Of a stretch of 64,000 bases of DNA, positions 13,170 to 14,430 are shown piece by piece. Location: contig CAWAQO010000009.1 of assembly GCA_963784255.1 (NCBI GenBank), positions 346,545 to 410,544 on the forward strand, in the 5' to 3' direction. The notes under the pieces are model-generated. The model was not told the origin of the DNA, searched no databases, and saw only the letters and a program-made list of their open reading frames with translations. The DNA comes from an uncultured Acidimicrobiia bacterium (GTDB lineage Bacteria; Actinomycetota; Acidimicrobiia; Acidimicrobiales; Ilumatobacteraceae). The translations under genes were made by a program, and so were the position numbers. Each line of letters opens with the position of its first letter. Position 1 is the first letter of the stretch.

Positions 13170-14430
13170 ATGGTGAGGACCTACGCGCGTCCTCCGGCAC
13201 GGATCCGTCCGCCGGCGACATCGGCAGCCGTGCGCCACGCCGGGCGGGTCAACCTGCACCCGGCGCACGGGCGTGTCGATCCGTCCGCCGTCCTCCGGCT
13301 GCAGCGCCAGGCCGGCAACCGGGCGGTCAGCATCGAGATCGGCGAGGTGACGGTGGAACCGGTGTGCGCGTCGTACGAGCGCGGCGAGCGGGCCAAGGCG
13401 GCGTCGTCCGCCGGGGTGCTGGCCGCCGACGTCAGCCTCGCCGGCGGACACGCCATCGACTCGGCCGCCGGCGACTCGGTCGTCGTCGCCGACTTCCCGA
13501 TCGGCAGCGCCGAGCTGCGCCCGTCGACGGTGGCGCAGTTGCGCTCGTCGTGGATCGGCATCCTCGAGCGCCAGTCGTCGACGAAGTACGAGTTCGTCGG
13601 CTACTCCGACTGCGCCGGCGACGGCGGCCGTAACACGGCGCTGCGGCAGGCCCGCGCCAAGGCTGTCGCCGCACTGTTCCCGAAGACCGCCGCCCGGGCA
13701 ACGGCCGTCGGCGGCGCGCCCGTCACCGAGCACGCCGTCGACAACAGCACACCCGAGCACCGCGCCCTCAACCGCTCGGTGATCATCCGTCTCCCACCGT
13801 CGAGGCCCCCGCCGCCGGCGCCGAAGCCGGAGCCCGAGGAACCGGGCGTGGTGATCAACCGCCGCGAGCCGCGCACGACGGGGTGCAAGCGACCATGGCG
13901 GGAGATGCTCTCGGTGGCCTGGCCGGCGGCGAGGATGATGGTCGAGAAGGCCCTGGAGATGGCCTACACCGGCAAGGGGTCCGTCAACACCTACCTCCTC
14001 GAGCGCTACTTCGGTCCCGACGCGCTGACCCACATCGTGCCGATCCGCGCAGGGCTACCAGAACATCATCAGCAAGTGGTTCGACTGGGACCCCAACTTC
14101 GAGTGCCACGAGCAGACCGAGGCGAAGTGCCCCAACAAGGACCCGCACAAGGTCACCCTGGCGTACGTGCGGAGGAAGGGCGGATGGCCGTTCACGCCGA
14201 CGCCGTACGGCAGCGTGCACGTCTGCACCGAGGGGTTCATCAACTCCATCGGCAACCTGCAGGAGCTCTCGTCGACCGTCGTCCACGAGCTCAGCCACCG
14301 CCTCGACAAGACGCGCGACCACGCCTACTGCGACGACCCTCCGCAGTGCGGGCTGGACACCGCCAAGGCGATCGACAACGCGGACTCCTACGCCCAGTAC
14401 GCCCGGACGGTCTTCAACCTGTCGATCTGA
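13170..14430 (+). pseudogene. Leaderless multidomain protein: LQRxxGNxAV N-terminal motif + OmpA-like PG-binding module + M35-like Asp-zincin metallopeptidase; one frame break
   Basis: ORF 13170..14711 gives VLRLQRQAGNRAV, then FPIGSAEL...VGYSDCAGDGGRNTALRQARAKAV...ALNRSVII. After ...IVPIRAG (about 14052) coding bias moves to the frame of ORF 14167..14430: YQNIISKWFDWDPNFECHE...VHVCTEGF...VVHELSHRLDKTRDHAY...NADSYAQYARTVFNLSI plus TGA 14428-14430. Confidence 0.8.

Follow-up and report, generated by a model that had tools for sequence, protein, structure and literature searches.

What a leaderless protein that appears to join a peptidoglycan-binding domain to a zinc protease might be for is the question raised by the gene at positions 13170–14430 of a 64,000-nt stretch (hereafter the window) of contig CAWAQO010000009.1, from an uncultured Acidimicrobiia bacterium. 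We favor, at a probability of roughly 55%, the reading that the product of this gene is an intact, modular, toxin-like protein of 419 residues, the cargo (effector) of an extracellular contractile injection system (eCIS) or other contractile injection system (CIS) which we infer to be encoded elsewhere in the genome. As judged from its sequence and those of its relatives, the protein is most likely an orphan variant, lacking DUF4157, of the predicted eCIS-associated toxins (EATs). The cargo reading follows from relatives that lie inside phage-tail-like injection-system gene clusters; what is new here, relative to the predicted eCIS toxins, is the DUF4157-less form, the orphan position, and a conserved N-terminal motif.

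Domain Architecture

The features of the gene and its product, with residues numbered on the frame-corrected protein, are as follows.

13170–14430, plus strand: whole gene, 419 codons and a stop once the extra base at 14049 is dropped, starting at ATG 13170
13170–13361, plus strand: N-terminal region (residues 1–64), basic, Pro/Arg/Ala-rich, predicted to be disordered, with no hydrophobic signal
13290–13340, plus strand: helix motif φφxLQRxAGNxAVxxφφ (V41–I57; φ, hydrophobic), with its core L44–V53 at 13299–13328
13365–13790, plus strand: conserved Cys-x2-YE-x-GE segment and OmpA-like peptidoglycan-binding domain (residues 66–207), from profiles and Foldseek
13791–13865, plus strand: Pro-rich linker (residues 208–232), read from the sequence and of low confidence in the AlphaFold2 (AF2) model
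13875–14427, plus strand: predicted aspzincin (M35-like) zinc endopeptidase domain (residues 236–419), with six conserved cysteines, in the +1 frame after 14049
14049, plus strand: extra G in a CGCGC context that breaks the frame, from comparison with three homologous loci (L142, L141, and L012)
14284–14328, plus strand: catalytic signature H372-E-L-S-H376 plus T381-R-D383-H-A-Y386, from alignment to 1g12

An earlier reading of this DNA from the sequence only (the sequence-only reading) had proposed a leaderless protein of three modules, an N-terminus with an LQRxxGNxAV motif, an OmpA/MotB-like module, and an Asp-zincin peptidase. Profile, fold, and alignment tests bear out this architecture, and every string quoted in that reading was found where it had been placed.

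The C-terminal module is predicted to be an M35 zinc endopeptidase with a complete HExxH...TxDxxY...NADSY site. PF14521 scored 37.8 bits against the frame-corrected protein, above its gathering score of 30 (residues 271–411; profile positions 6–141 of 142), and a search of the PDB with the family profile retrieved the peptidyl-Lys metalloendopeptidase 1g12 (E 4.7e-6). The same enzyme was recovered by Foldseek from the AF2 model (E 1.4e-5; template modeling (TM) score on the target, 0.73), together with AsaP1 and deuterolysin, and the predicted local distance difference test (pLDDT) values of the model lie at 66–92 within the domain. HELSH (14284–14298) is followed by DHAY (14317–14328) and then by NADSYAQYA, and pairwise alignment with 1g12 (GfMEP) sets HELSH..KTRDHAYC..NADSYAQY against HESSH..GTKDYAYG..NADNHEYF. 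Across 27 family sequences H372, E373, H376, T381, and Y386 are invariant and D383, the predicted Asp zinc ligand, is at least 90% conserved, its spacing from HExxH being two residues shorter than in 1g12. Eight cysteines are conserved across the family, which suits a protein acting outside the cytoplasm.

The middle module appears to be an OmpA-like domain that retains the Asp/Arg pair predicted to hold diaminopimelate. The strings by which it had been recognized fall at residues 109–116 (FPIGSAEL), 143–166 (VGYSDCAGDGGRNTALRQARAKAV), and 199–206 (ALNRSVII). As a single sequence, the protein scored 19.2 bits with Pfam OmpA (PF00691; cut-off 27.2; residues 109–202, profile positions 2–98 of 98); five homologues exceed the cut-off, and NCBIfam models of OmpA-like lipoproteins matched at E 2e-8. 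Searching PDB sequences with the family profile retrieved PA0833-PD (E 7e-12) as well as OprF, YiaD, and YfiB (range 7e-12 to 1e-6), and Foldseek aligned the AF2 model with YfiB, OprF, TagL, Pal, and the A. baumannii OmpA structure 3td5 (TM on the target 0.6–0.78). D147, N155, R159, R162, and N201-R202 are invariant in the family, GYSD147C..N155..LR159..R162A and N201-R202 aligning with GYTDSTG..N..LSQRRA and NRRV of the solved domains. The Asp and Arg of this set we take to be the diaminopimelate contacts, after A. baumannii OmpA 3td5.

The N-terminal region carries a net charge of +6 over its first 40 residues, with pLDDT below 50 for residues 1–39 and 42–64. Its sole helix in the AF2 model (residues 38–47) is located at the motif, and its maximum 10-residue Kyte-Doolittle value is 1.27. 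The motif-bearing string ...DPSAVLRLQRQAGNRAV... spans residues 37–53, within which A48 and G49 are invariant in the family alignment and V41 and R46 nearly so; the predicted helix is amphipathic and conserved. By hydropathy rather than a dedicated predictor, none of the 27 family members has a Sec, Tat, or lipoprotein-type hydrophobic N-terminus (10-residue maximum ≤1.56 and 19-residue maximum ≤1.45 over the first 70 residues), in agreement with the leaderless start described earlier, and the hydropathy threshold is exceeded by only one of 182 wider relatives, which is not signal-like. A hydrophilic, disordered N-terminus without a Sec signal is a trait of EATs, and is found here by AF2 and hydropathy. 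No Pfam match to DUF4157 (PF13699), the N-terminal HExxH metallopeptidase-like domain, was found in this protein.

The same modules may be read as those of an endogenous wall-associated protease, active in autolysis or in wall or surface-protein processing, that exits by lysis or by an unrecognized export route and carries the motif as a pro-peptide or regulatory segment. The pairing of an OmpA-like domain with a peptidase would suit a wall-remodeling enzyme and the eight conserved cysteines fit an extracytoplasmic protein. We nonetheless hold this explanation to be unlikely, given that a Sec, Tat, or lipoprotein signal would be expected of such an enzyme and no signal-like N-terminus was seen among the 182 relatives. 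To our knowledge, the known wall-remodeling enzymes do carry Sec, Tat, or lipoprotein signals.

Integrity of the Gene

The start at ATG 13170 agrees with 18 intact homologues (391–467 residues; 56–81% identity), which align end to end with the protein and begin M(V)RA(Y/H); each is a single open reading frame (ORF) spanning the break and keeps I-R-(A/Q)-G-Y across it. From this start the frame reads sensibly until ~14050 (…LTHIVPIR), after which it turns into Arg/Pro-rich out-of-frame text; the +1 frame resumes coding at …GYQNIISKWFDWDP… and runs to the TGA at 14428–14430. A further comparison is with a 63-kb syntenic contig (L142), found via the protein encoded by the neighboring Hcp gene and 98.7% identical over the gene, which reads ATCCGCCAGGGC (IRQGYQ) where the window reads ATCCGCGCAGGGC. 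DNA alignment likewise shows the window to be one base longer than the homologues L141 and L012 at the break.

The break most probably is an assembly error in an intact gene, since L142 lacks G14049 and has an extra base of its own ~175 nt upstream, and since the window and L142, each corrected for its indel, differ by 11 synonymous and 4 non-synonymous codons; the gene is under purifying selection. Of the break that the sequence-only reading had put near 14052, its existence stands and its position moves to 14049, and the question that it had raised, whether the break is genuine, is answered in favor of an intact peptidase half. A candidate site at the GGG of 14052–54, which would give IRAGYQ, was ruled out by the L142 comparison in favor of G14049 and IRQGYQ. 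Residue 294 is Q after removal of this base, and the analyses reported here were run on an A294 version of the protein, a single residue off the Q294 form. Programmed +1 frameshifting was also considered, given that L142, like the window, has the C-terminal part in the +1 frame, and was rejected because the shift sites differ between the two assemblies (175 nt apart) and all other homologues are unbroken single ORFs.

Across 19.5 kb, 106 gap openings separate the window from L142. In L142 the methyltransferase and AMP-ligase genes are intact, in the window they are frameshifted; conversely, L142 is fragmented at places that are intact in the window. About 7 frameshifts were counted in 50 kb of the window. 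These unshared frameshifts in housekeeping genes mark the window as coming from an indel-prone, long-read-like assembly. Further single-base breaks lie at ~14700, ~15620, ~17310, ~21600, ~22600, and ~34450, affecting a DUF7059/MTS methyltransferase (two breaks), the AMP-ligase, two acyl-CoA dehydrogenases, and a short-chain dehydrogenase; the intact L142 counterparts of the first two are 459 and 519 residues long.

That the gene is instead a decaying pseudogene, with a real frameshift and no peptidase half made, we regard as improbable. Broken versions occur in the window, in L142, and in a third relative (P0019), and orphan toxin genes are often lost. Against this, the break position differs in each assembly, that of P0019 lying at still other positions, and the same assemblies carry the unshared housekeeping frameshifts and indel differences given above. 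Neither half of the broken gene contains an in-frame stop, synonymous substitutions outnumber non-synonymous ones as already noted, and all catalytic residues are intact.

The N-Terminal Motif across Metagenomes

The N-terminal motif was searched for in JGI metagenomes with a DNA pattern that fixed only L-Q-R-x-A-G-N-x-A-V in high-GC codons. The pattern occurs at no fewer than 120 loci, with 122 instances among the matches listed. Flanking positions that it left unspecified are conserved among these matches (L/V/I/M at −3 in 90%, L at −2 in 65%, and L/I/V/M at +13 in 87%), defining the extended unit φφxLQRxAGNxAVxxφφ, in which one hydrophobic pair lies ahead of LQR and a second four residues past AV. 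Also among the matches listed, the motif sits a median of ~50 residues from the first possible start and within 120 residues of it in 91 of 108, while the sequence downstream is unrelated between the listed ORFs (mean column identity 6–7%). From these counts, flanks, and N-terminal placement, the motif is real, widespread, and far beyond chance expectation; the sequence-only reading had made its case depend on a frequency above that of unrelated Arg/Ala-rich actinobacterial sequence.

Its association with DUF4157-type proteins of eCIS, noted in the sequence-only reading, also finds support. Among the 110 motif ORFs listed, eCIS_core/DUF4157 is the commonest Pfam domain (10 of 110), set against a published background rate of 0.06% among non-toxin genes, and in proteins with both elements DUF4157 begins 10–110 residues past the motif. 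Domains directed at the wall are repeatedly present in these ORFs, namely PG_binding_1 (7), OmpA (5), Peptidase_M15_4 (2), CHAP, YkuD, PG_binding_3, and SH3_3, and there is one other Aspzincin_M35.

The proteins of a single eCIS operon were further compared by tblastn with 120 short motif loci (median 3.2 kb; 537 kb altogether). Sheath or AAA genes flank the motif ORF in 8 of the 120 listed; sheath genes adjoin it in L031, L051, L060, and L085, and loader-type AAA genes in L027, L052, L054, L085, and L136. In three of the four sheath loci (L031, L051, and L060) the sheath gene and the motif ORF are transcribed divergently. Such co-occurrence with sheath and AAA genes is a further point against an endogenous wall protease. 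No description of the motif was found in the literature, which was searched by literal motif strings only.

In viral contigs the pattern gave three matches, one of them out of frame and two inside a phage tape-measure protein. The tape-measure-like protein (1521 residues) carries an internal ...SAALQRLAGNYAVVDG... at about residue 1060, perhaps by chance and perhaps as an echo of the tape-measure ancestry proposed for some injection-system cargo. The viral instances listed from the DNA pattern are the following.

L015, 3688–3716: motif instance within an ORF at 511–5076
L016, 6693–6721: motif instance

Relatives in Injection-System Operons

An exhaustive profile search returned 134 cluster representatives at E ≤ 1e-30. 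Distant homologues of ~570 residues share 30–46% identity over ~90% of the protein and have the same core, with DUF4157 at the start. DUF4157 is missing from the 18 closest relatives and present in P0021–P0035 and P0038. One such homologue (P0024; DUF4157, OmpA-like, and M35), 43% identical over 97% of the query, sits between an AAA ATPase and a CIS_tube gene (L014) in a full eCIS operon containing sheath, gp19 tube, Pvc16_N, AAA, spike, gp25, and baseplate genes. Nine further loci (L003–L011), from six phyla, hold similar members beside genes for sheath, gp19 tube, Pvc16, AAA, spike, gp25, and baseplate. The genome-collection hits, all with neighbors of this kind, belong to Anaerolineae, Gemmatimonadetes, Vulcanimicrobiaceae, Neptunomonas japonica, Pyrinomonadaceae, and a Nitrososphaeraceae archaeon. 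Such membership of eCIS operons is not what an endogenous wall protease would lead one to expect.

Among 182 relatives on the shared OmpA-like scaffold, the LQR motif (41) and DUF4157 (80) stand in for each other, just 3 having both. Wider relatives show the C-terminal domain to be exchangeable, with M35, Ntox44, Tlde1, or YkuD in that place. Ntox44 is a polymorphic-toxin domain, and Tlde1 is a wall-targeting type VI secretion system (T6SS) toxin domain. The layout is that of a polymorphic toxin, in which a variable warhead is joined to a delivery module and an adaptor; the presence of Ntox44, Tlde1, and DUF4157 on the same scaffold again speaks against a wall-remodeling enzyme.

If the protein is indeed such a cargo, its N-terminal tag would recruit it to a contractile particle, like the N-terminal region (with or without DUF4157) of the operon-encoded homologues, and the protein would be loaded into or attached to the particle through this region. 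Once delivered into the envelope of a target, or set free by lysis, the protease would then be tethered to peptidoglycan by the OmpA-like domain, where the aspzincin would cut a wall-associated protein or peptide. More tentatively, and by analogy, φφxLQRxAGNxAVxxφφ could be a tag by whose sequence a class of contractile injection systems of high-GC bacteria recruits its cargo, so that products of genes dispersed over the chromosome, this one included, would be loaded in trans, an idea we consider possible rather than probable; the tag may bind the loader ATPase or a DUF4157 adaptor.

Two recurrent arrangements were noted around the relatives. In the eCIS operons of L007, L008, and L010, 4–5 tandem DUF4157 genes lie between the loader AAA and CIS_tube genes, and the protein with OmpA-like and M35 domains is one member of this array. 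In four close-homologue loci, a ~1000-residue protein with the motif, a coiled coil, and DUF4157 is encoded 0.6–9 kb away, directly followed by a homologue of prolipoprotein diacylglyceryl transferase (LGT; PF01790).

L012, 5852–6865: LGT homologue (PF01790)
L013, 5186–6340: LGT homologue (PF01790)
L138, 4023–5051: LGT homologue (PF01790)
L139, 11813–12952: LGT homologue (PF01790)

LGT is a recurrent, unexplained partner, and a published Spirosoma entry combining DUF4157 and M35 has AAA and LGT neighbors as well.

Genomic Context of This Copy

The gene is flanked by acyl-CoA dehydrogenase and YjbR genes (divergent) and by the DUF7059/MTS methyltransferase, a convergent Hcp gene, and the AMP-ligase. 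The methyltransferase GTG at 14432 lies one base past the stop of our gene. None of these neighbors is found near the homologues in L001–L011, and the context therefore yields no functional clue. A promoter scan found nothing, which is uninformative at 72% GC (71.8% for the window).

This copy is an orphan, away from any injection-system operon seen. The window was covered with Pfam for the immediate neighbors and for 31–64 kb and with tblastn of its whole length using eCIS proteins, most other genes at 1–31 kb being identified by eye only. On this coverage, the 64-kb window contains no injection-system structural gene (sheath, tube, baseplate, spike, or Pvc16) and no loader AAA gene, nor any DUF4157 or LGT gene, and delivery of this particular protein by an injection system is accordingly argued by analogy. 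All of these genes are likewise lacking within reach in the three closest contexts (L141, the P0003 contig, and L140), no conserved immunity-like gene was found beside the family, and the PF00691 score of the single sequence is below the gathering score. The eCIS operons of the distant homologues, moreover, do not use the motif, which makes its loading role an analogy. All of these points weigh against the cargo reading. Of the criteria applied to EATs, proximity is absent, there being no eCIS operon within ~ten genes or anywhere in the window, and DUF4157 is found neither in the protein nor within two gene positions; homology to eCIS-operon proteins is present, through P0024 in L014 and the members in L003–L011.

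An endogenous wall protease would sit comfortably here: housekeeping genes surround this one and the window has no injection-system gene, the gene may be co-transcribed with the methyltransferase, and its closest homologues occupy housekeeping contexts likewise. These points are to be set against the missing export signals, toxin-domain relatives, and operon-encoded members described above.

The context also suggests the protein as cargo of the neighboring Hcp, whose ring would carry or chaperone the M35 protein.

15912–16403, minus strand: full-length Hcp gene, 163 residues (PF05638, E 4e-32), 1.5 kb from the gene under study

The full-length T6SS_HCP gene is retained in the syntenic L142, and an M35 effector with the same HELSH...D spacing, T6EC12, has been modeled inside the hexamer of an Hcp encoded nearby, as a similar carriage is predicted for it. 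We find this explanation very improbable, given that no Hcp homologue lies within reach in the other family and motif loci (140 loci, 885 kb) and no T6SS core gene in the window. The Hcp gene is on the opposite strand behind the AMP-ligase gene, L142 at 98.7% is too close for shared synteny to count, and a second Hcp context (L143) has no M35 or motif gene. The conserved linkage to Hcp and core genes by which Hcp-dependent T6SS effectors are recognized was not seen.

As regards the Hcp gene itself, the genome around it is of actinobacterial type, and the window holds no T6SS gene. Its subfamily comprises at least 180 database clusters, including one Ilumatobacteraceae metagenome-assembled genome and one cyanobacterium, Phormidesmis, and in L143 the homologue lies beside a block of unknown proteins including DUF6603.

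Comparison with Known Systems

The nearest published counterparts to the protein are DUF4157-bearing EATs, DUF4157 at toxin N-termini being an eCIS marker. A 568-residue 'DUF4157,Aspzincin_M35' protein of Spirosoma pollinicola HA7, with AAA and LGT neighbors, is listed as a predicted eCIS toxin (Danov et al. 2024, Dataset EV4), and 'DUF4157,OmpA' proteins are also among the predicted eCIS toxins (Danov et al. 2024, Dataset EV4; Geller et al. 2021, Lcho_3055). Peptidoglycan-binding domains are noted in 68 predicted eCIS toxins, and a single one combines DUF4157 with Aspzincin_M35. The DUF4157 EATs and our protein share the core of Cys-x2-YE-x-GE segment, OmpA-like domain, Pro linker, and M35 domain (30–46% identity over ~90%), the lack of a signal peptide, and the polymorphic-toxin layout, and homologues follow an AAA ATPase gene in eCIS operons. 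They differ in that the gene studied here lies outside any injection-system operon and its product has, instead of DUF4157, a ~17-residue helix motif in a 64-residue disordered N-terminus. The claim that this domain combination was uncharacterized holds insofar as none has been characterized biochemically; the combination is nevertheless not wholly unrecorded, given the DUF4157 and M35 entry of Danov et al. and an M35 T6SS toxin with the same HELSH...D spacing, found to be toxic in a 2026 preprint.

As regards loading, a comparison is offered by AlgoCIS, whose cargo proteins Cgo1 and Cgo2 consist of a disordered N-terminal region, DUF4157, and a C-terminal domain. Loading of the cargo requires the disordered region but not DUF4157, and a cargo without DUF4157 is thereby made plausible. 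The likeness to our protein, a disordered N-terminal region followed by the effector part, is one of architecture. The sequence that directs loading in AlgoCIS is described as specific to its system and lacking conservation, in contrast to the motif here, which is conserved across hundreds of proteins.

Within the same phylum as the likely host, Streptomyces CIS cargo comprises Tme (BN159_7576) and Sle1/SLIV_17115 with its DUF4157 partner SLIV_17110. These cargo genes are divergent from the sheath gene, as are the motif ORFs in L031, L051, and L060, and the ~1000-residue neighbor with motif, coiled coil, and DUF4157 in L012, L013, and L138 resembles the tape-measure-like Tme class. The Streptomyces effectors, however, are tape-measure-like and membrane-active or nucleolytic, and not wall-binding proteases.

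With regard to the peptidase, T6EC12 of Methylocaldum szegediense is an Aspzincin_M35 T6SS effector toxic in bacteria and yeast (bioRxiv 10.64898/2026.09.28.754971). By its description, T6EC12 has an M35-type domain with an identical HELSH, the Asp seven residues after the second His, and an Hcp gene nearby; unlike our protein, it is part of a T6SS, is paired with a cognate immunity protein, and lacks both an OmpA-like domain and the LQR motif. The MEROPS M35 aspzincins 1g12 (Grifola frondosa), AsaP1 (2x3c; Aeromonas salmonicida), and deuterolysin (1eb6) share the fold (TM on the target 0.67–0.73 for 1g12 and 1eb6) along with HExxH, TxDxxY, and NAD(S/N). Identity to these type enzymes is ~20%, and their Asp ligand lies 9 rather than 7 residues past the second His. 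The type enzymes are Sec-secreted with pro-peptides, have no OmpA-like domain, and show Lys specificity.

Other Features of the Window

Elsewhere in the window lies a tmRNA gene (50084–50473, plus strand; Rfam, 95 bits). In the ~11 kb after it (50500–62000) GC falls to 64–70%, versus 74–78% just before, and the third-position GC signal is weak; this stretch looks like an island at the tmRNA site. No integrase was found among its scanned ORFs, which include RibD_C, an amidohydrolase, an ECF sigma factor with DUF6596, DUF2252, YCII, and MDMPI_N. Its relatives place the window in an Acidimicrobiia-like actinobacterial metagenome-assembled genome, and it contains no rRNA that could confirm this. 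A 164-residue ORF at 27177–27668 (minus strand), next to a sigma-factor-like gene, has good coding statistics and a Gly/Leu-rich repetitive C-terminus (…LLGNLLCGVAGLLDGGLGSGLGGLLAGLLDAIADLLNGLLGV), with no Pfam match.

Implications

For the window itself, the practical consequence is to annotate the gene as intact and to regard its frameshift as an assembly error. Beyond it, how extracellular contractile injection systems recognize their cargo is an open problem, published loading work having found the disordered N-terminal region to be needed and no sequence conserved across systems. Here a short motif marks hundreds of otherwise unrelated proteins, replaces DUF4157 on a shared scaffold, and adjoins sheath and loader genes. 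Were it a loading tag, it would provide a simple finder for orphan effectors far from their operon and a portable tag for cargo engineering, and a motif scan would delimit the effectors of whole genomes, many of them directed at the cell wall, in phyla whose loading signals are so far described only as disordered and not conserved. If the toxin reading is true, the protein would represent a zinc protease toxin tethered to the wall, a class on which there is almost no biochemistry.

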